A stretch of 64,000 nucleotides of DNA from Candidatus Parcubacteria bacterium (GCA_023396915.1 JAEWUV010000002.1:151705-215704); one strand, 5' to 3'. Numbered from the stretch's first letter, positions 18,102-50,203 are shown. Made by a program: numbers and translations. Notes: generated by a model from the sequence alone, not told the origin.

Positions 18102-18255
18102 TTAAAATCCCCTTCGGCTACGCCGCTTTCCCCTTTGAAGAAGGGGGACCTTAAATACAAAACACTCCCCAACCACTCCCTCGACAGGGTGGGGTTTTGA
18201 TTACAAAACCCACTCCGTTTCATGGATCTCCCTTAAAAAGGGAGGCTTTAAAAAC
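18102..18255. repeat. Composite palindromic repeat cluster (type B + A-like + C-like hairpins)
   Basis: AAAATCCCCTTCGGCTACGCCGCTTTCCCCTTTGAAGAAGGGGGA ... CTCCCTCGACAGGGTGGGG ... TCTCCCTTAAAAAGGGAGG. Units here also occur at more than 15 other loci. Confidence 0.8.
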
Positions 18256-18257
18256 AC

Positions 18258-18791
18258 TTATTTCCTTTTCAAAATTAAATAGACACATTTTACGTTTAAG
18301 TTATCGGGCCATTCGGGCCAATGAAAATAAAAATATCCCTTATCACCTTGTGAAGTATTGATTTTCCAGCCCCATTTTTTATAAATTTTTAGGGTTTTAG
18401 TATTGTAAATGTTGGTATCAAGTAACAAATTTCTATTTTCGGCAAATTTTAAAGCTAAATTATATAGTTTTTTACCAATACCGTGATGCTGAAAATCAGG
18501 GTGGACATAAAATCCAAAAAATTTAGCGGTATTTTTATCAATAATTTTACAAGTGGCCGAACCAATTAATTTAGTGTCAGAAAAAGCTAGCCAAGTTTTT
18601 TGGGTAGAAGAGTTAATTAGACTGGTTTTAAAATTTTTTTTGGCCTTAGGGGTATTAAAAATTTTTGGAGAAAAACATTCTTTGGTTAGACCAACTTTGG
18701 GATTGGTATAAGCAAATTCGTAAGTAGTTTGGAGAAGATTTATATATTCTTTTAAATTAGACGGTTTGGCTAGTTTAATATTAATATTCAC
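18258..18791 (-). CDS. GNAT family N-acetyltransferase
   Basis: FFGFYVHPDFQHHGIGKKLYNLALKFAE acetyl-CoA-binding motif. Confidence 0.7.
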   Translation of the reverse strand: MNINIKLAKPSNLKEYINLLQTTYEFAYTNPKVGLTKECFSPKIFNTPKAKKNFKTSLINSSTQKTWLAFSDTKLIGSATCKIIDKNTAKFFGFYVHPDFQHHGIGKKLYNLALKFAENRNLLLDTNIYNTKTLKIYKKWGWKINTSQGDKGYFYFHWPEWPDNLNVKCVYLILKRK

Positions 18792-18802
18792 ATTGATTAG
18801 TA

Positions 18803-20038
18803 TTATTTTTTGATTTCGATGTTGATATGTTTGGGGGTGAAGATTAGGAGAACGATACTAAGTAAAATATTAAAGCCAGCTAGAAATGAAAAAGTGGCGC
18901 TGACACTAAAGTTGTCGGCGATTAAACCGGCAAAAATAGGACCAATAATCCAGCCAAAATTAGTACTAAAATCGCTTAACCCTTCGATTTCCCGATCATA
19001 TTTCTCAGACTCATAAATATAATCACCATAAGCACCATTTATTGATGGCCAGGCGATGGAAAATATTAGAGAAGAGATAAAAACGGTAATTAAAATAAGA
19101 AGAGGAATTTTAATAATAAACAGAGGGAAAAGAATGATATTCCCAATTAAAAAGGCTATAAAAGCAGTTTTTTTCTTCCCAAATCTTTTATTAATCTTGC
19201 TAACAAACCAGCAAGTAAGAAGACTAGGAACGGTATACATTAACATAAATAATCCACCAAAATCTTTAAATTCAGGAAAATCTTGGGAAAAAAGTGGTCC
19301 AATCACCCAAAAAGCGGCATCAAATGAACTAAGAAAAATATTAAATAACAGAACCGGAAATATTATGAATCCAATTTTTCTCCAAATAGAAAACTCTTTG
19401 GCAAAATCGGAACGACAACGACGGGGCAAAACTATCTGAGTGTCTTTGAAAGAAAGCTTGACTAAAACTAAATAAAACAAAAAAGAGATAAATAAAAATA
19501 CTAAAGCAACTAGGAAGGGGGTAAAAGTAACCATACCAGTAATTAAAGCTCCGGCTACAGTAGGAGCAATAGATATGCCGACACCTCTGGCAATACTGAT
19601 TATTCCAAATCTTTGAGAATTGTTTGATTTGGAATGATTACCAATAAAATCAAAAATAGCAAAATTTATTAAATCGTAATAGAGTCCCCAAATTGCCATA
19701 GCAATAACTGAGAGGAAAAGTAGTCTGGATGAAGACCAAAGCACTAATGGGAAAATGGAACAAAGAATGTAGAAAAACAAGAATAACCGTCGATAATGAG
19801 TTTGTTTGAAAAATCTAGAAAGTAAAAAATCAAAGGTTGCTCCAAAAAAACTGGAGGTAGATATAATTAAACCAACTTGAGTTTTTGTTAGACCGATTTC
19901 ACTAAAAAAAATAGGAATTAAATAGCTGAAAGTACCATCAAAAATAGCCCAAAACACGACAATTAAAATAATATTGGAAAAAATTTTTTTATCTAGAGGA
20001 AAACGAACTATTTTGGCAGTGAGATTTTTTAAAAACAT
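18803..20038 (-). CDS. MFS-type transporter
   Basis: 411 aa with about 12 predicted TM helices. Confidence 0.55.
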   Translation of the reverse strand: MFLKNLTAKIVRFPLDKKIFSNIILIVVFWAIFDGTFSYLIPIFFSEIGLTKTQVGLIISTSSFFGATFDFLLSRFFKQTHYRRLFLFFYILCSIFPLVLWSSSRLLFLSVIAMAIWGLYYDLINFAIFDFIGNHSKSNNSQRFGIISIARGVGISIAPTVAGALITGMVTFTPFLVALVFLFISFLFYLVLVKLSFKDTQIVLPRRCRSDFAKEFSIWRKIGFIIFPVLLFNIFLSSFDAAFWVIGPLFSQDFPEFKDFGGLFMLMYTVPSLLTCWFVSKINKRFGKKKTAFIAFLIGNIILFPLFIIKIPLLILITVFISSLIFSIAWPSINGAYGDYIYESEKYDREIEGLSDFSTNFGWIIGPIFAGLIADNFSVSATFSFLAGFNILLSIVLLIFTPKHINIEIKK

Positions 20039-20041
20039 TTT

Positions 20042-21133
20042 TTAATATTTTCGATTAGTAATAAAATCGATACCGGCAGAAAGTTGAGAGCGGAAGGGTT
20101 TTTGGGATAAAAATTTTAATTCAGTATCAAAGATTTTTTTAGCTTCGACGGAAAATTTGTCAGCTAAATTTTTTGAATAATCTAAACTACCTGTTTCTTT
20201 CATCTGATCTATAACCCAGAGGACTTCTTTCTCCGTTTTTTGGGCCCTGGATTTTTTTAAAATGGTCAATAATTTTGGTTTGTTTTGACTAGAAATATTA
20301 TTTAATAAATGAGTTAGCATAATGGTTCGTTTGCCTTCATAAATATCATTACCAAATTGGTTTTTTTGGCCGGCAAAATTGGAGGTAAGATCTAATAAAT
20401 CATCAATAATCTGAAAAGATTTGCCTAAAGCCTGGCCAAATTTATAAATCGAATTTAACTGTAATGCGCTTGCCCCGGCAAGAATAGCTCCAAGACGCAT
20501 AGGACCAGCAATGGTGTAGTAGCCGGTTTTACTTTCTAATATTAATAGTATGTCTTTTTCTGATAAATCAAAACGGTTTTCCTGTGTCCATTTAATTTCA
20601 ATGGTTTGTCCAAAAATAGTTCGATTAATCATGGTAAAAAATTCCTGTTGAATAGTTTGGGCTATTTTTTTGTCTAAAATAGAAAAATTTTGGGAAAGAA
20701 TATTTAGGGTGAGGTTATGAAGAGCATCACCGGCGTTTATGGCAAGCTCGTTGCCATAAAGTTTTTGGATAGCAGGAAGACCACGACGATTAAGGGATTG
20801 ATCCTCGATATCATCATGCCCTAAAATCCAATCTTCGGAAAGTTGCATGGCGGCGGCAGTGGGGGCGGCTAATTTTGAGTTAAAACCCATGGCTTGAGCG
20901 GTGAGTAAAACAAGTGTCGGGCGAAGATATTTACCCTGACGACAGGGATAATCGGTAACCATTTTGAAATGAAAATCAAGTAGATTTTTATATTTTTTAT
21001 CAAGCTGGCAAAATTGGGGAAGATCTTTGATTTGATTAAGATTTTTTTGGATAAAAGGCCAGAGAGTTTGGCGATAATAAGACAAAGTATCTAAAAAATT
21101 TATTGGTTTCATATTAATCTTCTTCTTTGACAA
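20042..21133 (-). CDS. Polyprenyl diphosphate synthase (trans-isoprenyl diphosphate synthase family)
   Basis: Two Asp-rich motifs, DDIEDQSLNRRG and IIDDLLDLT. Confidence 0.75.
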   Translation of the reverse strand: MSKKKINMKPINFLDTLSYYRQTLWPFIQKNLNQIKDLPQFCQLDKKYKNLLDFHFKMVTDYPCRQGKYLRPTLVLLTAQAMGFNSKLAAPTAAAMQLSEDWILGHDDIEDQSLNRRGLPAIQKLYGNELAINAGDALHNLTLNILSQNFSILDKKIAQTIQQEFFTMINRTIFGQTIEIKWTQENRFDLSEKDILLILESKTGYYTIAGPMRLGAILAGASALQLNSIYKFGQALGKSFQIIDDLLDLTSNFAGQKNQFGNDIYEGKRTIMLTHLLNNISSQNKPKLLTILKKSRAQKTEKEVLWVIDQMKETGSLDYSKNLADKFSVEAKKIFDTELKFLSQKPFRSQLSAGIDFITNRKY

Positions 21134-22283
21134 TTTCTTGGATAACCCCTGTTTTTTTAAGAGCTAAACCAAAAGTATAAGGATAAATTATGGTCATAAT
21201 TTCAAAAGTGGTAACTGAAAGTTCGAAGGCGGAGGGAATTTGGTTGGTAATAAAGAAAGCGCCAAGACCGAGGACAATACCATTTTTAAGACTTTGACGC
21301 ATTTTGTTGCGGTAGACTTTGTCAACTATTTTTTGAGGAATACCTGAAGCGAGAGCTTGTTTACTTGCCTCTTTGTTATTTTTATAACCAGATTGAACTG
21401 TAAGAAGGAAGGTGGCGACGGCAGTAGTAAAATTCATCGGAGTATTTTGTCGTGTAAGATCGGCAATAAAGGTAAATTTTTCAAAACCATCAGGAAAATG
21501 ACGAAGAATAAAAATGGCGATTAATGCACCAACTCCACTAAAACCAGTAATTTTGAGTAAAAGCCGATTATATCTGATTCGAGCTTGAAGAATTTTTTGA
21601 TTTTTTTTGAAAATAAATCTAAAAAGACGCCAAATTAGACGCAAGGCAGTGGGAATAACAATAAGCCCGACAACAACCAAAATAATAGTATTCCAAGGAA
21701 CGGCGGTGGTTTGAGTTATTTTAAATAATGGAAGTTTAAAGTCGGTTCCCTGAAGGGGGTATTTTGGGTAAGGAACCCATTTGTAGAGTAAATTCATTTT
21801 TTGAAGTTTGAGAGGATCGGTATAAAAGTCGATTAAAAAAATGCGAAGGGCGGAAGAAAAGGCAATAGCTTGGACAAAGAAATTGAAGATATAAAAAACT
21901 ACTGGTAAACTCCCCTGCCTGAGCTGTTCGGCAACCTGATTACTGTCCGGTTTTAAGAAATACTGGTCTTCGGAGGTTTCTGATTTTTCCAATTCATCTT
22001 CGAAATCTTTGATAGATTTGTGAAAACGACTACCAATAACCCGAAGAGGTAAAAAAACAATATTTTGGACGATGCCGATAAGAATCACTGAAATCCAAAC
22101 TTGATGAGTTAGAGAATAGATAAAAAAGAAAACGCTGGTATAGAGGCGAAAACTGCCGCCGCGAAAGAACCAGATGAAAAGGATGATTAAAAAAATTAGA
22201 AGAATAGAGGTGAAAAATGGCAACCATTGGCGACTATTATCAATTTTACGGACCTGATTTATGGTGGTTTGGTTTTCGGCCAT
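21114..22283 (-). CDS. Polytopic membrane protein (possibly VirB6/TrbL-like)
   Basis: 389 aa with 7 or more TM helices, divergent from the VirB4-like locus. Assignment is speculative. Confidence 0.35.
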   Translation of the reverse strand: MAENQTTINQVRKIDNSRQWLPFFTSILLIFLIILFIWFFRGGSFRLYTSVFFFIYSLTHQVWISVILIGIVQNIVFLPLRVIGSRFHKSIKDFEDELEKSETSEDQYFLKPDSNQVAEQLRQGSLPVVFYIFNFFVQAIAFSSALRIFLIDFYTDPLKLQKMNLLYKWVPYPKYPLQGTDFKLPLFKITQTTAVPWNTIILVVVGLIVIPTALRLIWRLFRFIFKKNQKILQARIRYNRLLLKITGFSGVGALIAIFILRHFPDGFEKFTFIADLTRQNTPMNFTTAVATFLLTVQSGYKNNKEASKQALASGIPQKIVDKVYRNKMRQSLKNGIVLGLGAFFITNQIPSAFELSVTTFEIMTIIYPYTFGLALKKTGVIQEIVKEED

Positions 22284-22318
22284 TGTGTTAATTATACAAT
22301 TTAACTTATACTGTATGC

Positions 22319-22687: not shown

Positions 22688-25017
22688 ATCAATTTGCAAT
22701 AAGTGAATATTTAATTAGTTTTGTAAACGTCTTGGTAATGGCAATATTAATTGCCGGTTTGATATCCTTGATTGGTTGGGGGTTGATACTTTGGTTTAAA
22801 TGGAAAGATAGGGAAGAAAAATCATTGAAGCAAATTAATTTGTTTGTAGCGGTACCTGAGGATAATGAGGTAAAAGTTGATGCCATGGAAACAATAATAA
22901 GTTCTTTTGGCAGTATGTATAAAACGGCTAAGCCAAAATTTTTGCAGTTTTTGACAAGTCAACCAAGCGCTTCATTGGAAATCGTCGGAACTAGTGAGGA
23001 TATTAGGTTTTATATTTCGATACCAGATAAATATCGAGATATGATTGAGAAACAAATTTACAGTGTATACGCCGGGGCTGATATTAAAGAAGTTGATGAG
23101 CCAAACATTTATACTGAAAATGGAGTGGTGGAATATGCTTGGTTAGCCTTAAAAAAACTACCTTACTACCCACTAAAAACTTATAAAGAGATACCAACTG
23201 ATCCATTGGCGGCAGTAACCTCGACTTTGTCGAAACTTAATACAAGCGAAACGGTGGCCATTCAATTGGTAGTGTCCCCCACTGATGGTGCTTGGGCTAA
23301 AGCGGGCAAAAGTTTTATTAGTACCACTAAAAAAAGTGAAAGTAATCCGGAAAAGGCTTCTTATAAAGTAGAAGCAAAACAACTAGAGGCAATCGATCAA
23401 AAATGCAGTAAAACCGGTTTGGAAACAACAATAAGAATAGTAGCAGTGGCGCCAAGTAAGGAAATCGCTAAAAATAATATTGATAATATCAAAGCATGTT
23501 TTGGGCAATTTGAGTCTTCTTGGAACAAATTAAGCAGTAAAAAAATCAAAATAAAGTCTAGTTTCATGGAGAATTTTATTTATAAATATCCGACGGTTTT
23601 ATGGTTTAAAAATAAAACAATTTTATCCAGTGATGAATTGGCTTCTATTTTCCATTTACCTAGTAAAGTAATTGAAACTCCAAATATTTATTGGTTAAAG
23701 GCTAAAAAAGCACCGGCGCCGGTTGATTCGCCAAAGGAAGGACTTTATTTGGGTGATAATTTGTATCGAGGAGTAACCAAGAAGTTCTACATGACACCGA
23801 CTGACCGCCAAAGACACTTTTATATCGTCGGACAAACTGGTGTGGGTAAATCCTGGTTGTTGGCGGATATGGCCTTGCAGGATATTAAGGCCGGAAAAGG
23901 AGTATGTTTTATTGATCCTCACGACACTTTTGAAAGTTTATTGGAAAGAATTCCGCCGGAAAGAGTGGATGATGTAATTTATTTTGATCCATCCCAAACA
24001 GAACGACCAATGGGTTTTAATGTGATGGAATGTGAACGGGAAGACCAAAAAGACTTTGTAACCAGCTCGATTATCAATCTTATGTATAAATTGTACGATC
24101 CGTACAAAACCGGTATCGTCGGTCCCCGATTTGAGCATGCAATCAGAAATATTATGTTAACAGTGATGACCGAGCCAGGAGCAACATTTATAGAAATCGT
24201 TCGCTGCTTGACGGATCAAAGTTATGTCCAGGCAATTTTACCAAAAGTAAAAGACCCAATGGTTAAACGTTATTGGACTGATCAAATTGCCCAAACATCA
24301 GATTTTCATAAGTCAGAAGTGTTGGATTATATCGTGTCGAAATTCGGCCGGTTTATTACTAATACAATGATGAGAAATATTATCGGGCAAAGTACCTCAT
24401 CGTTTAATTTCCGACAGGCTATGGATGATGGGAAAATTCTTATTATTAATTTGGCCAAAGGTACTATCGGTGAAGAAAATTCGGCATTTTTGGGGTTGGT
24501 GTTAATCCCAAAAATTTTGATTGCGGCTATGAGCCGACAAAATGTGCCAGAAGAAAAGCGTCGGGATTTTTACCTATATGTGGACGAATTCCAAAATTTT
24601 GCTACTCAGGATTTTGCGGTGATTTTGTCTGAGGCAAGAAAATATCATTTGAATTTGACAGTGGCAAACCAGTTTGTTTCCCAAATGGATGATGAAGTGA
24701 AAAATGCCGTTTTTGGAAACGTAGGTACTATTTGTAGTTTCCGGTTAGGTATCTCGGATGCTGGATTTTTAGTTAAACAATTCCAACCAGAATTTGGAGA
24801 GCATGATTTGCTTAATTTAGGAACCGGAGAAGTTTATTTGAAAACTATGGTAAACGGAGTACCGAAAGATCCTTTTTCATTAAAGGTGGCGGCAGAAGAA
24901 AAGAAAAAACCGGGAAATCCGAAATTATCAGAAATGATTAAGAGGTTGTCAGCATTGAAATACGGCAGACCAAAAACATTAGTGGAAGCAGAAATAGCAC
25001 AGAGAGCCAGATTATAA
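22684..25017 (+). CDS. VirB4/TraC-family type IV secretion ATPase-like protein
   Basis: 777 aa with an N-terminal TM. Walker A is IVGQTGVGKSWL followed by CFIDPHD; Walker B is LYVDEFQNF. Overall size matches VirB4. Confidence 0.55.
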   Translation: MNQFAISEYLISFVNVLVMAILIAGLISLIGWGLILWFKWKDREEKSLKQINLFVAVPEDNEVKVDAMETIISSFGSMYKTAKPKFLQFLTSQPSASLEIVGTSEDIRFYISIPDKYRDMIEKQIYSVYAGADIKEVDEPNIYTENGVVEYAWLALKKLPYYPLKTYKEIPTDPLAAVTSTLSKLNTSETVAIQLVVSPTDGAWAKAGKSFISTTKKSESNPEKASYKVEAKQLEAIDQKCSKTGLETTIRIVAVAPSKEIAKNNIDNIKACFGQFESSWNKLSSKKIKIKSSFMENFIYKYPTVLWFKNKTILSSDELASIFHLPSKVIETPNIYWLKAKKAPAPVDSPKEGLYLGDNLYRGVTKKFYMTPTDRQRHFYIVGQTGVGKSWLLADMALQDIKAGKGVCFIDPHDTFESLLERIPPERVDDVIYFDPSQTERPMGFNVMECEREDQKDFVTSSIINLMYKLYDPYKTGIVGPRFEHAIRNIMLTVMTEPGATFIEIVRCLTDQSYVQAILPKVKDPMVKRYWTDQIAQTSDFHKSEVLDYIVSKFGRFITNTMMRNIIGQSTSSFNFRQAMDDGKILIINLAKGTIGEENSAFLGLVLIPKILIAAMSRQNVPEEKRRDFYLYVDEFQNFATQDFAVILSEARKYHLNLTVANQFVSQMDDEVKNAVFGNVGTICSFRLGISDAGFLVKQFQPEFGEHDLLNLGTGEVYLKTMVNGVPKDPFSLKVAAEEKKKPGNPKLSEMIKRLSALKYGRPKTLVEAEIAQRARL

Positions 25018-25055
25018 AACCCTAACCCTCCCCTTTCCCTTGACAGGGCAAGGGT
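25014..25055. repeat. Type A palindromic repeat (CCCTTGACAGGGCAAGGG hairpin)
   Basis: AAAACCCTAACCCTCCCCTTTCCCTTGACAGGGCAAGGGTAAAA. Confidence 0.8.
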
Positions 25056-26522: not shown

Positions 26523-26553
26523 GTCATTAATTTGACGGCTTTTTTGTGCCTTC
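26523..26553 (+). terminator. Rho-independent terminator after the plus-strand tRNA
   Basis: GTCGTCAttaattTGACGGC followed by TTTTTTGT. Confidence 0.5.
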
Positions 26554-26665
26554 AAATCTCCTTCGGCTTCGCCGCTTTCCCCTTTGAAAAAAGGGGAACT
26601 TTAAGACAAAACCCACCCGTCCCGCAGTGGCGGGACACCCTCCCTTGACGAAAGGAGGGTAAAAC
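26553..26665. repeat. Type B + B' palindromic repeats
   Basis: CTCCTTCGGCTTCGCCGCTTTCCCCTTTGAAAAAAGGGGAA ... GTCCCGCAGTGGCGGGACACCCTCCCTTGACGAAAGGAGGG. Confidence 0.8.
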
Positions 26666-29704: not shown

Positions 29705-29719
29705 AAATGATTTTAGCAC

Positions 29720-29829
29720 GAAACCCACCTGTCCTTCGGACACCCTCCCTTGATGAAGGGAGGGAATTTTAAGACAAAACCTCTCTGTCGATAAATCGAC
29801 ATCTCCCCTTAAAAAAGGGAGAAGTCTCT
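29720..29829. repeat. Type B' + type C palindromic repeats
   Basis: GTCCTTCGGACACCCTCCCTTGATGAAGGGAGGG ... CTCTGTCGATAAATCGACATCTCCCCTTAAAAAAGGGAGAAG. Confidence 0.8.
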
Positions 29830-34586: not shown

Positions 34587-35273
34587 ATGACTCGAGAAGA
34601 AGTTTATAAGCTCCATCAAAAATATGCTGTGGGAAAAGATCAACAAAAATTATTAGATTTAGTGTGGGGACATAGTTTGGTAGTGAAGGATATTGCCCTA
34701 CAATTGGCGGATAATTTAATTAAAAATGGAACTAGAATTAATAGAGAATTAGTGGAGATTGGAGCATTGATACACGATATTGGTTGTTATGATTATTATA
34801 AAAAAAATGGTGATATGCCATATATCTTACATGGCGTAAGAGGTTATGAAATTTTGAAAGATGAAGGAATTGATGAAGAAATTGCCAGAATGACAATAGT
34901 TCACTTGGGGGTAGGAATAGTAGAAGAAAATGTAATAGCTAATAATTTACCACTGGAGCACAAAGATTATATTCCAATAACGTTAGAAGAAGAATTAGTA
35001 GCATATGCCGATAATTTTCATTCAAAATCAGGACCAAAATTTGATAGTTTTGAACATTCTAAAGAAAAATTAGCGAGATTATGGCCGGAATCAGTGGTAG
35101 TTTTTGAAAGATTTAGAAAAAAATTTGGTGAACCGGATTTAAAGAAAATGGAAAAGAAATATGAGAAATGGCAGAGGGAGATGGAAGAGAAGATAAAGAC
35201 AAAATCCCCTTCCCCTTCGGGGCTTTCCCCTTTGATGAAAGGGGAACTTAAAACAAAACCCCTCTGTCAATAA
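34587..35273 (+). CDS. HD-domain phosphohydrolase; C-terminus runs into a repeat element
   Basis: H...HDIG pattern (GALIHDIGCYDYY). The last about 25 aa are translated from type B repeat sequence. Confidence 0.6.
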   Translation: MTREEVYKLHQKYAVGKDQQKLLDLVWGHSLVVKDIALQLADNLIKNGTRINRELVEIGALIHDIGCYDYYKKNGDMPYILHGVRGYEILKDEGIDEEIARMTIVHLGVGIVEENVIANNLPLEHKDYIPITLEEELVAYADNFHSKSGPKFDSFEHSKEKLARLWPESVVVFERFRKKFGEPDLKKMEKKYEKWQREMEEKIKTKSPSPSGLSPLMKGELKTKPLCQ

Positions 35274-35319: not shown

Positions 35320-36435
35320 ATGAAAATAATAAATATTAAAAACAATAAGGCTATAGAAAAAACGGTGGAGGTGATAAAGAGTGGTGGGTTGGTGGTGTTT
35401 CCAACGGATACGGTTTATGGATTAATGGTAGATCCGACTAACAAAAAAGCAGTGGAAAAACTGTTAAATTTTAAAAATAGGTGGACTGGAAAGGCAATTT
35501 CGGTAGCAGTTTTGGATAAAAAAATGGCTATGGAATACGTAAAATTAAGTAAAAACGACGAAAATATTTATTCAACTTTACTGCCGGGGCCTTTTACAAT
35601 AATTAATAACGGGAAACATAAGGTAGTAAATGGTATAGAGGCGGAAAATGGGACTTTGGGAATTAGAATCCCTGACAATAAATATATTACGGATTTAGTA
35701 AAAATTTTAAAAAAACCGGTAACGGCAACATCGGCTAATTTGGCGGGGAGAAAACCAAATTATTCAATAGAGGGATTTTTAAAATCATTGTCGAAGAAAA
35801 AAAGAGACATGATTGACTTGATTGTGGATGCGGGTAAATTACCCAGAAACAAACCGTCGACAGTGATAGATTTAACTGGATCTGAAATTAAAGTTTTAAG
35901 ACGGGGCGATTTAATCACTGGAAAAACAAATAGTTTAATTAGTAAATCAGAACGAGAAACAGAGAAAATCGCGGAGTTTATATTACGTAAATCAAACCCT
36001 TCCCAAACCCTTCCCTTGACAGGGCAGGGCTTAAATAAAAAGCCGCTGGTGTTTTTGTTATCGGGCGACCTTGGTTGTGGAAAAACAGTTTTTAGCCGAA
36101 AAATAGGTAGATTATTAGGAGTAGAAGAGAAAATCACCTCCCCTACTTTTGTAATTTATAACGAATACAAAACCCTAACCCCCTGCCCCTTTCCCTTGAC
36201 AGGGCAAGGGGAGAAAATGATGAAATTTCTACACATGGATTTGTATAAAATTACGTCAGAGAAGGATTTGGAAGAAATAAAATTTTTGGATTTGTTTGAA
36301 AAAAATACTATTAGTTGTATTGAATGGCCGGAAAATATGGGAGAAAAATACTTAAAAAAGTTAAATAAAATAGCTAAAACAGTAACAGTGAATTTTGGGT
36401 ATGTGGATGAAAAGACAAGAGAGATAAGATATTAA
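35320..36435 (+). CDS. Fusion protein: TsaC/YrdC/Sua5-type threonylcarbamoyl-AMP synthase domain + TsaE (YjeE) P-loop domain, with two in-frame repeat insertions
   Basis: N-terminal VVFPTDTVYGL (YrdC). C-terminal LSGDLGCGKTVFSRK...SPTFVIYNEY...HMDLYK (TsaE). Segments SNPSQTLPLTGQGL and LTPCPFPLTGQGEK are encoded by type A repeats. Confidence 0.7.
   Translation: MKIINIKNNKAIEKTVEVIKSGGLVVFPTDTVYGLMVDPTNKKAVEKLLNFKNRWTGKAISVAVLDKKMAMEYVKLSKNDENIYSTLLPGPFTIINNGKHKVVNGIEAENGTLGIRIPDNKYITDLVKILKKPVTATSANLAGRKPNYSIEGFLKSLSKKKRDMIDLIVDAGKLPRNKPSTVIDLTGSEIKVLRRGDLITGKTNSLISKSERETEKIAEFILRKSNPSQTLPLTGQGLNKKPLVFLLSGDLGCGKTVFSRKIGRLLGVEEKITSPTFVIYNEYKTLTPCPFPLTGQGEKMMKFLHMDLYKITSEKDLEEIKFLDLFEKNTISCIEWPENMGEKYLKKLNKIAKTVTVNFGYVDEKTREIRY
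35994..36034. repeat. Type A repeat in frame inside the tsaC-tsaE fusion gene (domain linker)
   Basis: AAACCCTTCCCAAACCCTTCCCTTGACAGGGCAGGGC. Confidence 0.8.
36170..36212. repeat. Type A repeat in frame inside the TsaE domain
   Basis: AAACCCTAACCCCCTGCCCCTTTCCCTTGACAGGGCAAGGGG. Confidence 0.8.
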
Positions 36436-36437
36436 GA

Positions 36438-36488
36438 CAAAATCCCCTTCGGCTACGCCGCTTTCCCCTTTGACGAAAGGGGAACTTT
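36438..36488. repeat. Type B palindromic repeat
   Basis: AAAATCCCCTTCGGCTACGCCGCTTTCCCCTTTGACGAAAGGGGAAC. Confidence 0.8.
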
Positions 36489-36905
36489 TTAAATTTTTAA
36501 ATTAGGTAATTTTTTTATAGCGATTACTTCAATTTCAATATCACAGCCTTCTTTGACTGTTTTACTTATCTCGACCAAAGTACTTACAGGTTTAGAAGTG
36601 GCAAAATATTTATTTCTAATTGTAGAAATATCTTTGAATTTGGAAATATCGGTGACATAGATAACCGCTTTAACAACATCGTCCAGAGACGAATTAGCTG
36701 ACTGTAAAATTTTTTGAATATTTTGGAATACAAATTCGGTTTGTTTAGTAATATCGTCAGGAGCAACTGCGTTGCCATTTTGGTCCATGGCAATCTGACC
36801 GGTAACAAAAATCATTTTTGAGTCACCAACATCAACCTCTATTCCATGAGAATAAGATCCCATTATTTGGGTAAAATTGTCTGGATTAATTATCTTCTTA
36901 TCCAT
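36489..36905 (-). CDS. RidA/YjgF/TdcF-family protein (start moved to an internal Met)
   Basis: C-terminal 138 aa match the RidA family (FVTGQIAMD...VKAVIYVTDI...IEVIAIK). The listed 80-aa N-terminal extension overlaps the upstream gene and looks non-coding. Confidence 0.6.
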   Translation of the reverse strand: MDKKIINPDNFTQIMGSYSHGIEVDVGDSKMIFVTGQIAMDQNGNAVAPDDITKQTEFVFQNIQKILQSANSSLDDVVKAVIYVTDISKFKDISTIRNKYFATSKPVSTLVEISKTVKEGCDIEIEVIAIKKLPNLKI

Positions 36906-37634: not shown

Positions 37635-38777
37635 ATGAAAATATTGGCAATAGAAACCAGTTGTGATGACACTTGTGCGGCAGTATTGGAGAATGATAGG
37701 GTTTTGTCAAACATAATTTCTTCACAAATTGATTTGCACGCCAAATGGGGCGGAGTAGTGCCGGATATAGCCAAAAGGGCACATCAATCGCGAATCAATA
37801 CTGTTATAGCTGAAGCATTGAAAAGATCAAAACCCTTCCCCAACCCTTCCCTTGACAGGGCAGGGAGAAAACTGTCGCCTGAAGAAATAATTGAGAAAGA
37901 AATTAAAAATATTGATGTGATTGGGGTGACACAGGGCCCGGGGCTGGCAATTGCGCTAGGGATTGGAGTAAATAAAGCCAAAGAATTGGCTAAAAAATAC
38001 AATAAAAAATTAGTGGCTGTAAATCATATTGAAGGTCATGTAATGGCAAATTTAGTCAAAAATAAAGCAGGAAAACCGGAAAGAAAAATGGAGTTCCCAG
38101 CCTTGGCACTGACAGTATCTGGGGGACATTCAAAAATTATTTTAATAACAAACCCCTCAGTCCTTCGGACAGCTCCCCTTGATGAAAGGGAGCCATCTTT
38201 AGGACAAAAGTTAATTTATACGGTTGTTGGGGAGACATTGGATGATGCGGCTGGGGAAGCATTGGATAAAGCGGCAAAATTACTGGGATTGGGTTATCCG
38301 GGTGGACCAATAATTGAAAGATTAGCAAAAGGTGGAGATGTTAATTTTTTGGATCTCCCCCATCCATTAGCTAACAAAAAAATATTGGATTATAGTTTTT
38401 CCGGATTAAAAACCAGTTTTTATTATAAAGTGAAGGATTGGCCAGCCGAAAAAATTTATAAAAACTTAAATAATTTAGCGGCGACGTTTCAAAATGCGGT
38501 TTTTGAAACACTTTTGAGAAAATACAAGCTGGCCATAGAAAAATATCGGCCAAAATTATTACTAGCCAGTGGTGGAGTTTTGTCTAATTTGGAATTACGG
38601 AAAAGACTTAGAAAATTGGCAAAAGAAATGGGTTTACCAATTTATATGCCATTTGCTAAGAATTTAAATACTGATAATGCGGCGATGATTGGAATAGTTG
38701 CTTACCAAAAAGCAGAAAGAGGTGAATTTGTGGAAAATATCGATAAATTAGATAGGGACCCAAGACTTCCGTTTTAA
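37635..38777 (+). CDS. tsaD: tRNA N6-adenosine threonylcarbamoyltransferase TsaD with two in-frame repeat insertions
   Basis: MKILAIETSCDDTCAAVL, VSGGHS, GETLDDAAGEALDKAAKLLGLGYPGGP. Extra segments KPFPNPSLDRAGRK and NPSVLRTAPLDEREPSLG are encoded by type A and B' repeats. Confidence 0.85.
   Translation: MKILAIETSCDDTCAAVLENDRVLSNIISSQIDLHAKWGGVVPDIAKRAHQSRINTVIAEALKRSKPFPNPSLDRAGRKLSPEEIIEKEIKNIDVIGVTQGPGLAIALGIGVNKAKELAKKYNKKLVAVNHIEGHVMANLVKNKAGKPERKMEFPALALTVSGGHSKIILITNPSVLRTAPLDEREPSLGQKLIYTVVGETLDDAAGEALDKAAKLLGLGYPGGPIIERLAKGGDVNFLDLPHPLANKKILDYSFSGLKTSFYYKVKDWPAEKIYKNLNNLAATFQNAVFETLLRKYKLAIEKYRPKLLLASGGVLSNLELRKRLRKLAKEMGLPIYMPFAKNLNTDNAAMIGIVAYQKAERGEFVENIDKLDRDPRLPF
37829..37868. 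repeat. Type A repeat in frame inside tsaD
   Basis: AAAACCCTTCCCCAACCCTTCCCTTGACAGGGCAGGGAG. Confidence 0.8.
38151..38193. repeat. Type B' repeat in frame inside tsaD
   Basis: AACCCCTCAGTCCTTCGGACAGCTCCCCTTGATGAAAGGGAG. Confidence 0.8.
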
Positions 38778-38833: not shown

Positions 38834-39181
38834 GTGAAGAAAAATATAATCCAAGAAAAAAGTTTTTGTTTTGCTTTGAGAATAGTTAAACTTTATAAAT
38901 ATCTTAAAGAGAATAAAAAAGAATATATTTTATCTAAACAATTATTAAGAAGTGGAACGTCAATTGGAGCTAATGTTGAGGAAGCTATTGGGGGTCAATC
39001 GAAAAATGATTTTGTTTCAAAAATTTCAATAGCTTATAAAGAATCACGAGAAACTTTATATTGGATAAAACTTTTAAAAGAGAGTGATTATTTAAATTTA
39101 AAACAAGCAGAATCAATGACTAATGATTGTGAAGAAATTATCAAAATAATTACAAAAATTCAAAAAACGATGAAATTTTAA
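38834..39181 (+). CDS. Four-helix-bundle protein (TIGR02436; 23S rRNA intervening-sequence protein family)
   Basis: 115 aa with ...LLRSGTSIGANVEEAIGG...SRETLYWIKLL motifs typical of this family. Confidence 0.7.
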   Translation: MKKNIIQEKSFCFALRIVKLYKYLKENKKEYILSKQLLRSGTSIGANVEEAIGGQSKNDFVSKISIAYKESRETLYWIKLLKESDYLNLKQAESMTNDCEEIIKIITKIQKTMKF

Positions 39182-43720: not shown

Positions 43721-43749
43721 CAAATTAAAAATTTATTAGAGGTAAAAAT

Positions 43750-44397: not shown

Positions 44398-44426
44398 AAG
44401 CTAATTGCTGTATAATTTAAACACTT

Positions 44427-45717: not shown

Positions 45718-45768
45718 ATTCAATCTTCCCCCTAGCCCCCTTCTTTGACAAGACGGGGGAATATTTTT
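45717..45768. repeat. Type D element immediately 5' of comFC start
   Basis: ATTCAATCTTCCCCCTAGCCCCCTTCTTTGACAAGACGGGGGAATATTTTTTT. A near-identical copy lies at 50150..50203. Confidence 0.75.
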
Positions 45769-45789
45769 TTGGATTTTTAGGTAGTATTT

Positions 45790-45798
45790 GGTATAATA
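45790..45798 (+). promoter_or_regulatory. Extended -10 promoter element (TGGTATAAT) for ssrA
   Basis: TGnTATAAT match 9 nt upstream of the GGGGATG tmRNA 5' end. Confidence 0.5.
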
Positions 45799-45807
45799 TA
45801 TTCCTCG

Positions 45808-46235
45808 GGGATGTATTGCATCGACGGGACAAGAACTTTAAAAAACTGCAAGCCGACTTTGATTAAATTAAGTCGTAAAACAGAATCAAAACAAAACATG
45901 CCAAATCTAATTTTGGTGAGAAATTTAATTTAGCCACTTCTTTTGGAAACTATGGTTTTCAAAATAATGCTAACTTAGCTTACGCTTTAGCATAAGCTTC
46001 TCCATTTACTATTTCCCTTTTCTGAAGAGAAATTGTAAGTGCCAACTAAATCAGAATGCTATTTTTAGAATCTCAATTTTTTAAAAATCTAAGAGGAGGG
46101 TAATGCCTTCACCAATTGACGTTTTAACGCCTTTTATTTACTTTAGCTGTTGAAAGTGTAGGAGAAAATAATTTAAGCTTGTAGATGTTTTTTACAGTCT
46201 GTTTTCGGACCCGGGCTCGATACCCGGCATCTCCA
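45808..46235 (+). ncRNA. ssrA: tmRNA (SsrA), about 428 nt
   Basis: 5' end GGGGATGTATTGCATCGACGGGA (the conserved tmRNA 5' acceptor/D-arm-like motif, GGGG..CGACGGG). Internal tag reading frame ...GCT AAC TTA GCT TAC GCT TTA GCA TAA (ANLAYALA-stop) at about 45968-45994. 3' T arm CCGGG-CUCGAUA-CCCGG and acceptor CAUCUCC-A. Adjacent smpB. Confidence 0.8.
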
Positions 46236-46240
46236 CTATT

Positions 46241-46288
46241 CAAACCCACCCGGCCTTCGGCCACCCTCCCTTGAAAAAAGGAGGGTAA
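46241..46288. repeat. Type B' palindromic repeat (possible ssrA terminator)
   Basis: CAAACCCACCCGGCCTTCGGCCACCCTCCCTTGAAAAAAGGAGGGTA. Confidence 0.8.
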
Positions 46289-46303
46289 GAATTAAGTTTC
46301 GTT

Positions 46304-46720
46304 TTATTTAAGAATTCTTGACATCTCTCTATCTTTGATTTTTTGTCTTTTTTCGTACTTGCGCAATTTGCGGCCAACGCCGATTTCGATTTTAAACCAC
46401 TTGCCTTTTAGATAAATAGCGATAGGAATAATCATATATTTTTGATGACGGAAAGATATTAGCTTGGCAATTTCTTTTTCGGATAATAAAAGATTTATTT
46501 CGGATGGGTTTTTGCTTATTTCTTCTTTTTGAGAAAACTTATATTTGGGAATTTTTAGGTTAAATAAAATTGGTTGGCCGTTAATGACTTCTATTTTAGA
46601 ACCAATGAATTGGGGTGTTTGGGTGCGCAAAGATTTAGCGTCAGCGCCAGTTAAGGCGATGCCGGCTTCAAATTTATCAGTAAACTGATAATCACGAGAA
46701 TCTTTGTTGAAGTAACGCAT
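46304..46720 (-). CDS. smpB: SsrA-binding protein SmpB
   Basis: ...KFEAGIALTGADAKSLR... central SmpB signature. 138 aa with a basic C-terminal tail. Confidence 0.85.
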   Translation of the reverse strand: MRYFNKDSRDYQFTDKFEAGIALTGADAKSLRTQTPQFIGSKIEVINGQPILFNLKIPKYKFSQKEEISKNPSEINLLLSEKEIAKLISFRHQKYMIIPIAIYLKGKWFKIEIGVGRKLRKYEKRQKIKDREMSRILK

Positions 46721-46740
46721 GCGTTAGTTTAACAAATTTC

Positions 46741-46795
46741 AAACCTCTCTGTTTCGTTTCACTCAACATCTCCCCTTAAAAAAGGGAGAAGTCTT
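46741..46795. repeat. Type C repeat (degenerate first hairpin)
   Basis: ...CATCTCCCCTTAAAAAAGGGAGAAGTCTTA. Confidence 0.7.
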
Positions 46796-46798
46796 AAA

Positions 46799-48649
46799 TT
46801 ATAAGGTTATCTTGTAAATTTTTTGGTCGGAGGAGAGGAAATAGATGGTTTTGTTGGCGGCGTCGAGAGAAACACTGAGGACGTCAAATTTGTCGAGATT
46901 ATATTTGGAAACAAATTCGCCGTTTTTGCGATAGACATAAATAAACTTTGATTTGTCGGTAAGAATTAAATAATCACTGTCGGGGTCAGTAACTAAAGAT
47001 GAGGCTGAAGAAATATCAAAACTTTGTTTTTGTTTGAAATTATCTTTGACGCCGCTGATATAAAGATTGACGAGGCCGGAAGATGTCATAGTCCATATGC
47101 GACCATCAATGGCTAAAAATTTGGAACCGATTTCTAGTTTTAAATTATTTTTTAACCAATTTTGGGGTTCAGAAAATCCGGAAGAATTGGGAGTAAATTT
47201 CCAAATTATTTGATCGGCGTTATCTAAAACATAAACTGAGCCATTCCAAAATTGAACGTCAGTGGGATGAACTGAAGAATAATCGTTAAGATTTAATTTA
47301 GAAGTAAGTCCATCTTTTTCGACTAATTTAACTTGGTCTTGGGACAAAATGTAGACCTGGTTACTGTCTAATAAAATTTTTTGGGCAGATTTAATTGAGT
47401 CGGAGACTGTAATATTTTTGGTAGATTTTTGCTCGGGATTTAGAGTGTCGATTCGACCCGAGGAAGAATCGAGTAAATAAAGTAGATTTTTAGAAAAAGT
47501 AATTTGAGAAAATTTAGGATTGCTGGTAATTAGAGACGTGTCATAAACCATATCGGGGGTAAAACTGTCACTGTCCCCTGTTTGGGAAAGAATGGAATTT
47601 ATTTGGGATTGATATTGGGCAACTTCATCTGAATAAATTTTAAGATTGGCCATATTGTTGATGATTTCTTGGGCTTCTTTGGCAGTAGAGTAAGCAGTAT
47701 CAAGGTCGAGACTTTTGACAGCAGAAATATTGTTTAACTTTTGTTCCAGTTCAGTTTTGTATTGAGAAAATTGAGACTCGGCAAGATTTGCCTGATTTTT
47801 TTTATGGCCAAAATAAAAACTTATTGAAAGACCAATTAATAAAACTAAGGCAAGAGTCAGGCGAATTTTTTGATGATTACCAATTTTGAAATTAAGACGT
47901 TGACGGACATAAACTGACGGATTTTTGTGAGGAATAATCGGAGAATTGATGGATTGCTCGGAAGAAGGTGGAATAATTTCCGTGGTTGAATTGTCAGTTA
48001 AGTCAGGAGAAGAATTTGAAATTGTGGAAGGAATATCTTCTTCTTGGTGAACTTCAATTAAGGCGGCGCTAAGTAAAGTTTGGTCATCAAGGGAATAAAT
48101 ATCGGTAAGAAAATTTTCTTCAATATTTTGAATTTTTTGGTCAATTAAAATGGTTTTAAGTTTGTCCCAAGTGAACTGATCTTTGAATTTTGAAGAGGAA
48201 ATAAAAATTCTGTCCAGATTTTGGATGGGACCGGAAATAACAGCCGGAGATTCTTGGTTGCCAGACAGAAGACGACTAATTTGGTTTTGACGTTGAAGGC
48301 TAACTTCGATATCACCAAAGACAATTAAAAAAAGTTGATCATTGAGAATAACTGCCAAAGCTAAATCAAGTTTTTCATCGGGATTAAGTTGTTGATTAAT
48401 TTTATTAATAATTTGTGTAAGACTGGCTAAAACTGAGTCTGATTGGTTTGAAAAATATTGGCTGTTGATTTGATTAATCAAATCGTGACCTGTCTGAATA
48501 ATAGTGTCAGAATTATTACAAGATAAATTAATGACACCGAACAAATGACCTTTGGAATTTTTGGTTAAATCATCCGGTTCGTTTTCCCAATATTGAGCCC
48601 ACCAATTAGGGGTATTTTTACCAATAAAAGAACGACAGGTGAAGTGCAT
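46799..48649 (-). CDS. Hypothetical bitopic membrane protein: cytoplasmic N-domain, one TM, extracytoplasmic beta-propeller-like repeat domain
   Basis: 616 aa with a central TM (IRLTLALVLLIGLSISFYF). The C-terminus has repeated ...VYxLDxxxxxIxK blade-like units. Confidence 0.4.
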   Translation of the reverse strand: MHFTCRSFIGKNTPNWWAQYWENEPDDLTKNSKGHLFGVINLSCNNSDTIIQTGHDLINQINSQYFSNQSDSVLASLTQIINKINQQLNPDEKLDLALAVILNDQLFLIVFGDIEVSLQRQNQISRLLSGNQESPAVISGPIQNLDRIFISSSKFKDQFTWDKLKTILIDQKIQNIEENFLTDIYSLDDQTLLSAALIEVHQEEDIPSTISNSSPDLTDNSTTEIIPPSSEQSINSPIIPHKNPSVYVRQRLNFKIGNHQKIRLTLALVLLIGLSISFYFGHKKNQANLAESQFSQYKTELEQKLNNISAVKSLDLDTAYSTAKEAQEIINNMANLKIYSDEVAQYQSQINSILSQTGDSDSFTPDMVYDTSLITSNPKFSQITFSKNLLYLLDSSSGRIDTLNPEQKSTKNITVSDSIKSAQKILLDSNQVYILSQDQVKLVEKDGLTSKLNLNDYSSVHPTDVQFWNGSVYVLDNADQIIWKFTPNSSGFSEPQNWLKNNLKLEIGSKFLAIDGRIWTMTSSGLVNLYISGVKDNFKQKQSFDISSASSLVTDPDSDYLILTDKSKFIYVYRKNGEFVSKYNLDKFDVLSVSLDAANKTIYFLSSDQKIYKITL

Positions 48650-48661
48650 TAATTAATGATA

Positions 48662-48889
48662 CTACAAACCGAACATACTTAAGACTAAAACAACAGAGAA
48701 GGCAAGGTGGATGTAAGAAAAGATAATTAAAATTGGATTAAACTTGTCAGTAATACTTTTAGACATGGCGCTAACTTGTTTGACAACAATTACGGAAAAA
48801 ACTAAATAAAGAACGGCCAGTACAATGAAAAAAATTTTGGTAATACTAAAAAAATAAGTGTTAATGTTTAAATCAATTAAATTAAGCAT
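48662..48889 (-). CDS. Small two-TM membrane protein
   Basis: 75-aa hydrophobic protein. Confidence 0.35.
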   Translation of the reverse strand: MLNLIDLNINTYFFSITKIFFIVLAVLYLVFSVIVVKQVSAMSKSITDKFNPILIIFSYIHLAFSVVLVLSMFGL

Positions 48890-49574
48890 CTAGCCCTCCT
48901 TCTTGTTCTTCTAAATCACGTAATTCTTTGAGTAATTTAATAACTTTTTCAGGATTAGGAATTTTTTCAAAATTAATTTGGTTTGTTTTGGCGGCGGTTT
49001 GGATAAGGACATCACCATAATTAAAAAAAGTTCCCAAAAGACCTTTGACGGATGATGAAACATCTTGAATCATGTCGAGATCAGCTTCGGCAAAATGTTT
49101 ATTGAGAAGATTGTTAAAATCAATATCGACAACCCGTTGGTTAGTAACCAAAAAAAGATCAAAATACCAATTAAGAAATTTTTCAAAAGCAAAAATAAAA
49201 GTAAAGAGATACCAAAAAAGAACAGCAGAGAATTGGTATTGAGTGGGGAAAAAATTTAAAAAACTAAAATAATGGAAAAACAAAGGAACAAAAAGCATTA
49301 AAACTGAGATAATCATCCAATGAAGGTTGGTAATCCAGTGAGGTCTGAGTGCTAAATAAATCTGTTCATCTTCGTTGCGTTCGGAGAAAGAGACGACTTT
49401 TGGGTGGACTAAAAATGAGGAAAAAGAACTCTTGGTATGGCCTAAAATATCATAAATTTTTTGACTAGTATCGGTAGGGAGACTGGTTTTGGGAGATTCT
49501 TTCTTTTGATCAATCGAAGAAGTAGCTATTGAATCGTCCGTGGCGATGTTGTCTAAATCTTTAGATCGGTTCAT
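48882..49574 (-). CDS. bPH_2 (DUF304, YdbS/YdbT-like) membrane protein with PH-like domain
   Basis: LRPHWITNLHWMIISVLMLFVPLFF followed by a VVDIDF... beta-rich region typical of bacterial PH domains. Confidence 0.5.
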   Translation of the reverse strand: MNRSKDLDNIATDDSIATSSIDQKKESPKTSLPTDTSQKIYDILGHTKSSFSSFLVHPKVVSFSERNEDEQIYLALRPHWITNLHWMIISVLMLFVPLFFHYFSFLNFFPTQYQFSAVLFWYLFTFIFAFEKFLNWYFDLFLVTNQRVVDIDFNNLLNKHFAEADLDMIQDVSSSVKGLLGTFFNYGDVLIQTAAKTNQINFEKIPNPEKVIKLLKELRDLEEQEGGLDA

Positions 49575-49591
49575 GCTTTAGTTTATCATAA

Positions 49592-49636
49592 GAAACCCCT
49601 CAGTCCTACGGACAGCTCCCCTTGATGAAGGGGAGC
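49592..49636. repeat. Type B' palindromic repeat in the 5' leader of the bPH_2 gene
   Basis: GAAACCCCTCAGTCCTACGGACAGCTCCCCTTGATGAAGGGGAGC. Confidence 0.8.
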
Positions 49637-49647
49637 AATATTTTTTA

Positions 49648-50151
49648 TTAAATTATATTATTTAGTTCTAAAAGATTTTTAATTTGATTGGCTAAAAAAG
49701 CGGCGTTGGATCTTTTGGGAAGATGAAGGAAAATATGCTTCGTATCGGGCTGTTTTTGATTAATATGAAGTTGTGTAGAATAGGCAATCCAATTGCAATT
49801 GTAAGTGCCCATATTAGAGCTGATAGCAAAATAGTTTGAATCAAAATTGTCAAGATTTGGCAGACTTAAATCGAGTAAAAACGGGGAAAAAGGATAAATA
49901 GATTGGTCGTTATAAGCGTTTTTTGTTTGGGTTTCGATACGAATTTTGGAAAAATTTCCATACAAATCACCCAGACCAATAATCAGATTATATTGGTTTC
50001 GAGAAATGTATTTCTGGAAAAATGATTTGGGATCAAAATAGATAAGGCGAAATTCGAAATTATTTTTATTAATAATTTTTTGTAATTCTAATAAAATGCG
50101 GTGAGAGATGTTAGTGCCCCATTGGTTGGAAAAGGCATAAATTAGAATCAT
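49648..50151 (-). CDS. Hypothetical protein
   Basis: 167 aa with no confident family. Preceded by a type D element. Confidence 0.35.
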   Translation of the reverse strand: MILIYAFSNQWGTNISHRILLELQKIINKNNFEFRLIYFDPKSFFQKYISRNQYNLIIGLGDLYGNFSKIRIETQTKNAYNDQSIYPFSPFLLDLSLPNLDNFDSNYFAISSNMGTYNCNWIAYSTQLHINQKQPDTKHIFLHLPKRSNAAFLANQIKNLLELNNII

Positions 50152-50203
50152 TCAATCTTCCCCTTTATCCCCTTCTTTCACAAGACGGGGAAAGAAAATT
50201 TTT
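50150..50203. repeat. Type D element immediately 5' of the gene start
   Basis: ATTCAATCTTCCCCTTTATCCCCTTCTTTCACAAGACGGGGAAAGAAAATTTTTT. Confidence 0.75.

Follow-up and report, generated by a model that had tools for sequence, protein, structure and literature searches.

The window analysed here is a 64,000-nt stretch of DNA from Candidatus Parcubacteria bacterium (GCA_023396915.1, JAEWUV010000002.1:151705-215704) and belongs to a 906,714-bp contig in an ENA metagenome. Its GC content is about 35%, and GC skew was positive in 29 of 32 two-kb bins. Gene content and matching metagenome-assembled genomes (MAGs) place the host in Candidatus Shapirobacteria, within the Patescibacteria or candidate phyla radiation (CPR). 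Many of the matching MAGs are labelled "uncultured Gammaproteobacteria"; this label is wrong, because they carry syntenic Shapirobacteria genes, such as that of the TsaD homologue P0012 on CAYOPC010000004.1. The middle of the window carries dnaG, trpS, valS, an HD-domain gene, a tsaC-tsaE fusion, tsaD and tmRNA, and GC-rich hairpin repeats lie between and inside these genes. These repeats are the subject of this study.

The initial annotation, made from the sequence alone, had described more than 20 palindromic repeats of at least four types (A, B, C, and D). A total of 23 clear copies were found at 18.1–50.2 kb, all on the plus strand: 14 of type B, 7 of type A including one divergent copy at 18157–18194, and 2 of type D (Table 1). 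The count was borne out and the number of types was not. Types B and C had a common leader and a conserved second hairpin and differed only in a hypervariable first hairpin; by sequence they are to be read as a single family. Three families and a palindrome in dnaG are left. Families D1–D7 and D13 of a repeat finder coincided in position with the annotated types. The 18-nt type A core gave 6 matches when up to 2 mismatches were allowed, where shuffles predicted 0.01. A covariance model trained on 13 type B units detected 14 copies with scores of 28.6–69.8 bits, all on the plus strand and all within 18.1–49.7 kb; the 14th copy (18200–18253) was outside the training set. Beyond the 23 copies, a weak remnant (51861–51896) and a perfect palindrome (17390–17419) were detected. 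Of the 12 intergenic gaps that measure 40 nt or more between 27.9 and 48.6 kb, 8 held a unit and were often nearly filled by one. No hairpin element was detected in the first 17 kb or the last 12 kb of the window. Six copies in the window were in frame, in ValS, TsaC-TsaE, TsaD, and DnaG. Unlinked copies were 85–94% identical over 48–68 nt, which counts for a copy-paste origin.

Table 1. Hairpin units and related palindromes in the window (positions counted from its first nucleotide)
Positions	Strand	Unit and location	Support or remark
17390–17419	.	Family E perfect palindrome CAGAGCCTGCCTGC-CA-GCAGGCAGGCTCTG in dnaG	10-aa insertion QSLPAGRQAL; core also in other loci
18100–18157	+	Type B (leader, hairpin 1, hairpin 2), between acetyltransferase gene and dnaG	57.4 bits
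18157–18194	+	Divergent type A-like unit ACAAAACACTCCCCAACCACTCCCTCGACAGGGTGGGG	
18200–18253	+	Type B, missing from the initial annotation	28.6 bits, E 6e-6
25017–25054	+	Type A2, between convergent genes	core search, repeat finder
26549–26603	+	Type B, directly after tRNA-Met	50.5 bits
26604–26667	+	Type B, tandem with 26549–26603	58.5 bits; folding z-score −4.2
29716–29772	+	Type B, overlapping spurious trpS N-terminal extension	67.8 bits
29773–29831	+	Type B (annotated as type C), tandem with 29716–29772	46.1 bits
31047–31104	+	Type B, filling gap downstream of valS	69.8 bits
31435–31472	+	Type A1, inside valS (minus-strand gene), read as LPALSREGSGKG	absent in L112 and L113
35197–35254	+	Type B, giving the HD-domain gene its C-terminal tail and stop codon	66.8 bits
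35255–35311	+	Type B (annotated as type C), tandem with 35197–35254	50.1 bits
35993–36030	+	Type A1, tsaC-tsaE site 1, read as SNPSQTLPLTGQG	empty in L113; other families in L111 and L112
36170–36211	+	Type A2, tsaC-tsaE site 2, read as TLTPCPFPLTGQGE	L111 type B, L113 decayed type D
36435–36492	+	Type B, between convergent genes	65.8 bits
37829–37866	+	Type A1, tsaD site 1, read as KPFPNPSLDRAGRK	orthologue alignment, core search
38145–38201	+	Type B, tsaD site 2, read as NPSVLRTAPLDEREPSLG	66.2 bits
43678–43715	+	Type A2, upstream of triose-phosphate isomerase gene	core search, repeat finder
45718–45761	+	Type D, upstream of tmRNA; leader TCTTCCCCC is exact mirror of arm CCCCCTTCT	
46237–46293	+	Type B, abutting tmRNA 3' end	58.3 bits
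46736–46798	+	Type B, first hairpin degenerate	53.6 bits
49588–49644	+	Type B, terminator-like, T-run after hairpin	64.8 bits
50150–50193	+	Type D	repeat finder, folding
51861–51896	+	Possible decayed unit near 5' end of SpoIID-like gene, weak	13.6 bits, E 0.099

The units were about 37–65 nt long. Each consisted of an A-rich and C-rich leader (AAAYCCC...) followed by a hairpin with a pyrimidine arm, a loop beginning with TTGA, and a purine arm; only type B had the hypervariable small hairpin between the leader and the main hairpin. The left boundary of type A was sharp at AAACCC, its right end was the last G of the stem, and its flanks were unconserved save for a weakly A-rich 3' side. No conserved target tetranucleotide was visible in the flanks. 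Types A and D held a fixed internal stem mismatch, T·C or T·T. The hairpin GTCCTTCGGAC, annotated as a UUCG tetraloop, folded instead as a 4-bp stem with a 3-nt loop. The family E palindrome in dnaG had 14-nt arms, and its 20-nt core CCTGCCTGCCGGCAGGCAGG was also found in loci L005, L108, L111, and L112; in L112 it lay within a type B unit, between its two hairpins. A search of Rfam at gathering thresholds returned only rRNA, tmRNA, and tRNAs, and none of the units matched a known RNA family. On the minus strand, type A units (e.g., 25017–25054 and 37829–37866) have four G-tracts, GGGAAGGGTTGGGGAAGGG or GGGAAAGGGGAGGGTTAGGG with telomere-like TTAGGG, a sequence that matches the canonical motif of a G-quadruplex; four C-tracts are present on the plus strand.

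The folding of single units was compared with that of shuffled sequences. Types B and D gave z-scores of −2.2 to −4.2, and type A folded only modestly better than its shuffles. Covariation of type B was measured on 90 copies from other genomes in an alignment fitted to the model, so that the figures are somewhat inflated: 89.8% of cells were paired compared with 76.2% in shuffles and at most 69.6% in slid registers, and double-sided changes numbered 201 compared with 62.7 ± 10.3. The hairpins thus covary. In the orthologous TsaD site 1 hairpin of L112, pairing was kept through a compensatory change from T-A to C-G. The leader also covaried with the purine arm of the second hairpin, in parallel register, and the only peak was at shift 0. 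There, 55.5% of cells had C opposite G or T opposite A, and no other shift exceeded 37.5%; 456 compatible cells were observed compared with 357 ± 9 in permutations. The leader and the pyrimidine arm of the hairpin form a mirror repeat, which is exact in type D (TCTTCCCCC and CCCCCTTCT). The strand order would fit an intramolecular pyrimidine-purine-pyrimidine triplex, as judged from the layout. About half of the families have A where a pyrimidine-motif triplex requires T. Watson-Crick pairing of leader and purine arm was also considered; it gave 58–69% at 5 of 7 offsets without a sharp peak and was uninformative.

In-frame peptides had been proposed in ValS, TsaD, and the TsaC-TsaE fusion, and translation together with orthologue alignment confirmed them: LPALSREGSGKG in ValS, KPFPNPSLDRAGRK and NPSVLRTAPLDEREPSLG in TsaD, and SNPSQTLPLTGQG and TLTPCPFPLTGQGE in TsaC-TsaE. 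The stretches encoded by the elements include KPFPNPSLDR, TAPLDEREPSLGQK, and LPALSR. The window was compared with three syntenic loci, L111, L112, and L113. The closest genome pairs were about 80–95% identical, and only coding sites could be aligned for the comparison of filled and empty sites. L113 had neither the ValS segment nor the first of the TsaC-TsaE segments nor either TsaD segment, and L112 likewise had no ValS segment. The listed TsaD relatives (65–94% identity) spanned 341–490 aa. Apart from one N-terminal extension (P0081), their length differences were confined to two sites, and the 341-aa forms were empty at both. The genic segments are therefore lineage-specific insertions and not as ancestral sequence, since the orthologues of relatives lacked them or had a different family at the same codon. 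The check by orthologue alignment called for in the initial annotation thus came out in favour of insertion.

Sites were reused by different families. TsaD site 2 was occupied by type B in the window, by type D in L111, and by a different type B subtype in L112; in L113 it was empty. TsaC-TsaE site 2 held type A2 in the window and L112, type B in L111, and a decayed type D in L113. TsaC-TsaE site 1 held type A1 in the window and, elsewhere, type B or a 28-nt palindrome with family E (L111, L112); it was empty in L113. In L111, the loop of the hairpin at TsaD site 1 contained an extra 21 nt. The repeated use of the same codons by different families points to a site-preferring insertion, excision, or exchange.

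The position of the inserts in the proteins was investigated where orthologues or models allowed. In the AlphaFold model of TsaD (mean predicted local distance difference test score, pLDDT, 73), insert 1 lay in a coil between helices 43–64 and 82–92, and insert 2 lay in a turn between strands 167–171 and 195–201 with a pLDDT below 50. Both TsaD inserts are thus predicted to fall in loops, the outcome of a check that the initial annotation had proposed. The ValS insert lay between the catalytic and anticodon-binding domains as delimited by Pfam, and the 10-aa insertion QSLPAGRQAL of DnaG was absent from the Aquifex DnaG structure 2au3. The genic copies examined in this way sit in loops or linkers. 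Terminal extensions had been attributed to the repeats in three further places. The N-terminal extension of TrpS is spurious by alignment, because its orthologues begin at MSNKP; the DnaG extension is very likely spurious; the C-terminal tail of the HD-domain protein is encoded by the element.

Pgk had also been named as a probable carrier. This was rejected: Pgk of the window has the base length of the clade, 341 aa, and no insertion, and its GC-rich segment at 62761–62802 lies in a hypervariable loop and matched none of the family models. The segment is a GC-rich quasi-palindrome that codes for the loop RLRPTGYDGQS, which is common to the 73%-identical P0151 and missing from the 88%-identical P0128. 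Other relatives had a 20-aa insert, ANSGAHQQLHGLDGQAVLAGKP, after GHRGRP; the relatives considered here were P0149, P0162, P0178, and P0233. From this quasi-palindrome and the 20-aa insert, it follows that further hairpin families exist. At the same two TsaD hotspots, relatives P0007, P0013, P0018, P0032, and P0034 carried AT-rich peptides, e.g., NEECLISNDQFLSQ and FLISNFQFLKNK; this hints at additional AT-rich palindromic families, which would escape a search based on GC content. Directly downstream of tsaD, at 38834–39181, is a gene from the family of 23S rRNA intervening-sequence proteins (PF05635). L112 also has this gene; L111 and L113 do not.

The distribution of the elements was investigated by scanning species-representative genomes for the exact 22-nt type A core; the counts are lower bounds. 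The core was found in more than 107 stretches, nearly all from Shapirobacteria, in dozens of MAGs. In 690 kb of type A-bearing loci, 90 further type B copies were detected. At E ≤ 0.01, the syntenic loci L111 and L112 had 9 and 8 type B matches, all on the plus strand; L113 had one weak match and almost no copies in 21 syntenic kb. No exact match of the type A core was found in viral contigs, and a phage origin was rejected. No description of such repeats in Shapirobacteria or CPR was found in the papers searched, in agreement with the novelty suggested initially.

Copies inside long open reading frames (ORFs), on both strands, made up 44 of 125 for type A and 40 of 104 for type B (about 35–38%); most copies are intergenic, as had been stated. 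Type A was read in four frames, giving PFPNPSLDRAG, TLPLTGQG, LPALSREG, and PCPVKGRV. The frame with a stop codon was never seen among genic copies, whose detection required an open frame. Because the same DNA was read in four frames and on both strands, conservation acts at the DNA level, and the inserted peptides are by-products.

Complete type A1 units, with leader and hairpin, were also observed in contigs of 56–61% GC from unrelated MAGs (L065, L076, L097, L109, and L110). In L097, L109, and L110 the unit occupied one orthologous site, and in L076 it formed a composite repeat with a classical GTAG-headed GTAGGGGCGAACCGATGTGTTCGCCC repetitive extragenic palindrome (REP). This suggests spread between phyla.

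All 23 copies in the window lay on the plus strand, whereas neighbouring and host genes lay on both strands. In other genomes, the locally G-rich strand held the leader-first strand in 105 of 124 type A copies and 82 of 90 type B copies (p about 1e-15 each). The elements are C-rich on the locally G-rich strand; therefore, they cannot themselves cause the association. Copies were shown to have been inserted in one orientation, as judged against the strand that is locally G-rich. In most bacteria, the G-rich strand is the leading strand. If it is taken as leading here, the leader-first strand would lie on the lagging-strand template. Elements of the IS200/IS605 type use the lagging-strand template for both excision and insertion, and their genomic orientation is biased (PMC5027513); given the replication strand assumed above, the same orientation was found here.

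The elements were compared with known systems. Rickettsia palindromic elements (RPEs) are found in frame in unrelated housekeeping genes and are compatible with the protein fold; they are about 150 bp long, with one conserved peptide per family (PMC10969869). The RPE resemblance proposed at first held in part. The units are palindromic repeats in a small, AT-rich, reduced genome; they have colonised intergenic DNA and, with the host protein intact, housekeeping ORFs (ValS, TsaC-TsaE, TsaD, and DnaG). They are only 37–65 nt long, as against about 100–150 bp, and one family gives four different peptides instead of one. Unlike RPEs, they stack in tandem, reuse sites, and hold one orientation relative to GC skew. 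The RPE host phylum is unrelated to the Patescibacteria host, which also sets the units apart. No similarity to RPE sequences was recognised, although the two were not directly aligned.

REPs are imperfect palindromes of 30–40 nt that occur in high copy number and in variable tandem clusters, with a conserved stem mismatch (PMC3333891). The units are likewise short, imperfect, high-copy palindromes with a stem mismatch, and the same clade has genes resembling REP-associated tyrosine transposases (RAYTs) with flanking GTAG-headed REPs. However, types A, B, and D begin with AAAYCCC and not with the 5' GTAG/CGTC of REPs, which a separate GTAGGGG-hairpin family has. REPs and the bacterial interspersed mosaic elements that they form are extragenic, with inverted REP/iREP pairs, whereas the copies here are direct, all plus, and 35–38% genic. 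Like IS200/IS605 elements, the units bear hairpins, lack inverted terminal repeats and target duplications, and would be oriented along the lagging-strand template (PMC5027513). Unlike them, they have no tnpA or tnpB in or beside the unit and no conserved tetranucleotide target, and the two hairpins of type B are dissimilar. [quoted passage not shown] In-frame colonisation likens the elements to RPEs in behaviour, and their form and probable mechanism liken them to REP and IS200-type hairpin DNA. They fail defining features of RPEs, REPs, and MITEs alike.

Yeast mitochondrial GC clusters and chytrid mitochondrial double-hairpin elements are also GC-rich hairpin modules in very AT-rich DNA. They form several families and occur occasionally in frame in coding regions; they are organellar, and their consensus differs from that of the Shapirobacteria units. 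We know of no replication-strand orientation rule or mirror-repeat leader described for them. The single orientation linked to GC skew, site reuse, the mirror leader, the palindrome in dnaG, the clade's RAYT/REP systems, and type A outside CPR are new beyond the initial annotation. Because of them, the nearest mechanistic analogue would shift from RPEs and MITEs towards single-strand hairpin elements of the REP/IS200 type.

The candidate mover was investigated in related loci. An E. coli RayT probe gave only a marginal match (E 0.25), which led to a 155-aa gene at 4983–5450 of L086. This gene scored above the threshold for Pfam Y1_Tnp, had "REP-associated tyrosine transposase" as its best NCBIfam match, and was flanked by inverted AAAGTAGGGG-hairpin-CCC repeats. 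RAYT-like genes were also found in L031 (1225–1755) and L056 (4722–5036). The ORFs of these two contain a REP right after the HUH motif, and the copy in L056 seems to be truncated. Each of the three genes lay 50–800 nt from an exact type A copy. Shapirobacteria have a conserved family of RAYT-like enzymes. RAYT binding requires a mismatch in the REP stem (PMC3333891). Only a minority of type A copies had GTAG in their spacer.

Taken together, the results are best explained by a superfamily of non-autonomous, strand-specific mobile GC-rich hairpin repeats that has multiplied in Candidatus Shapirobacteria, with RPE-like behaviour and possibly REP-like movement; we give this reading a probability of about 0.6. 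Since the G-rich strand would be the lagging-strand template, movement as single-stranded DNA at the replication fork, like that of IS200/IS605, would follow. A hairpin-recognising enzyme, such as the REP-type Y1 transposases of relatives, may be the mover. The mechanism is plausible, and its mover is unproven. Several observations weigh against this explanation. The units had no terminal inverted repeats, and their flanks showed no convincing target-site duplication, only weak A-richness. No transposase gene was found in the window or its flanks, and the best 120 matches included no RAYT homologue from the source contig of 906,714 bp. The repeats flanking the RAYT genes are a different family, GTAGGGG-hairpin-CCC, and not types A, B, or D, and GTAGGGG repeats were absent from the window. 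The metagenome RAYT relatives returned were 26–40% identical and from other bacteria; the 350 kb around 80 such distant genes was rich in GTAGGGG motifs and held no copy of types A or B, and the link through distant RAYT loci was not borne out. That GC skew reveals the replication strand is assumed for this group, and the missing stop-containing frame of type A is partly circular. Strong conservation across species, even phyla, and covariation also fit a selected function.

Such a function is the core of the most serious rival, in which the elements are host-selected structural signals, either replication-linked single-strand or triplex/H-DNA signals or RNA hairpins that end or stabilise transcripts, and not selfish DNA. 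Selection would explain abundance, orientation, and conservation. Covarying hairpins, an orientation that tracks GC skew and not gene direction, a 22-nt core identical in many species and a few other phyla, and the filling of 8 of 12 gaps agree with it, and the parallel covariation gives the pyrimidine-spacer-pyrimidine-loop-purine layout of an intramolecular triplex. However, the syntenic L113 manages without elements at the same loci, families are interchangeable at one site, and copies occur in every intergenic context and in ORFs on both strands; the first 17 kb and last 12 kb of the window have none. The A found in about half of the families also speaks against a triplex. A promoter role had been proposed from the TTGACA hexamers. 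No −10-like hexamer occurred 16–18 nt after TTGACA in 121 type A copies, and promoter-like sites were no commoner than in shuffles; the promoter role was rejected on these grounds. A few copies are terminator-like, but most have no T-run, and with only about 5 elements fitting the hairpin-plus-T-run pattern, a general terminator role was dismissed. We consider host selection unlikely as the overall explanation. Local origin is less probable still. Here hairpins would arise by template switching or slippage at quasi-palindromes and be homogenised by ectopic gene conversion without a dedicated transposase. The first hairpin of type B is hypervariable and yet a hairpin in most copies, perfect mini-palindromes are nested in other units (21 nt in the L111 TsaD site 1 loop; family E in the L112 type B unit), families replace one another at one site, and no transposase lies nearby. 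Local processes yield inverted or direct repeats, however, and not a mirror-repeat leader, and they cannot explain why near-identical 40–60-nt units, sharply bounded on the 5' side, recur in unrelated high-GC genomes and at hundreds of unrelated loci; homology below 40 nt would also be short for efficient gene conversion.

The view that the peptides are selected protein modules for ValS, TsaD, TsaE, or DnaG, with the DNA repeat secondary, is largely refuted. Inserts are kept in essential genes across relatives, and proline- and glycine-rich peptides such as PFPNPSLDRAG recur in many proteins; against this, unrelated peptides are read from four frames and both strands, close orthologues lack the segments or have other families, the inserts are modelled as low-confidence loops, and most copies are intergenic. 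Assembly or binning artefacts have next to no probability. The source is metagenome assemblies, and many MAGs carry wrong taxon labels. Nevertheless, the identical TsaD protein with both inserts was found on 15 contigs from several samples, insert-bearing proteins were identical on 11–17 contigs from several samples (10–12 of them 0.2–1 Mb long), reading frames were intact, and elements occurred in dozens of MAGs from independent studies. The assembly objection raised at the outset was therefore not borne out. Within the mobile-repeat explanation, a more specific proposal is that types A, B, and D form a new class of single-strand mobile hairpin element, in which the leader mirror serves as a triplex-like clamp and a Y1-type or other enzyme on the lagging-strand template swaps cassettes at preferred sites, with a reach beyond CPR. 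That reach is proposed because complete type A copies occur in unrelated high-GC genomes. Cassette swapping, if true, would explain different families at the same codon of essential genes. This proposal is doubtful at present.

The observation itself is solid. Shapirobacteria and CPR genomes are about 1 Mb and are thought to be streamlined, yet here hairpin modules that turn over between close relatives make up a sizeable share of intergenic DNA and form loops of essential enzymes (ValS, TsaD, TsaE, and DnaG). The elements offer a second, independent case of the RPE phenomenon and hundreds of natural insertion experiments into conserved proteins, which is of interest for CPR protein evolution. 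For annotation, they create false N-terminal extensions, altered C-termini, and large variation in orthologue length, and CPR protein clustering is probably confused by them. Orientation, hotspot reuse, and mirror-repeat architecture provide a concrete model for REP-like DNA spread.

Two other features were observed in the first 17 kb of the window, whose lack of hairpin elements might be expected if the DNA was recently acquired. A low-GC island (25–30% GC) lies at 10000–14000; it encodes a protein of 932 aa that combines Mrr_cat and STAND-NTPase domains, and the gene has the look of a defence gene. At 12891–13182 on the minus strand, a group I intron (Rfam RF00028, 78.9 bits, E 1.8e-20, 12936–13156) interrupts a tRNA gene. 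The halves flanking the intron carry the D-arm and the T-arm, and both ARAGORN and the gathering-threshold Rfam scan had missed the split tRNA.

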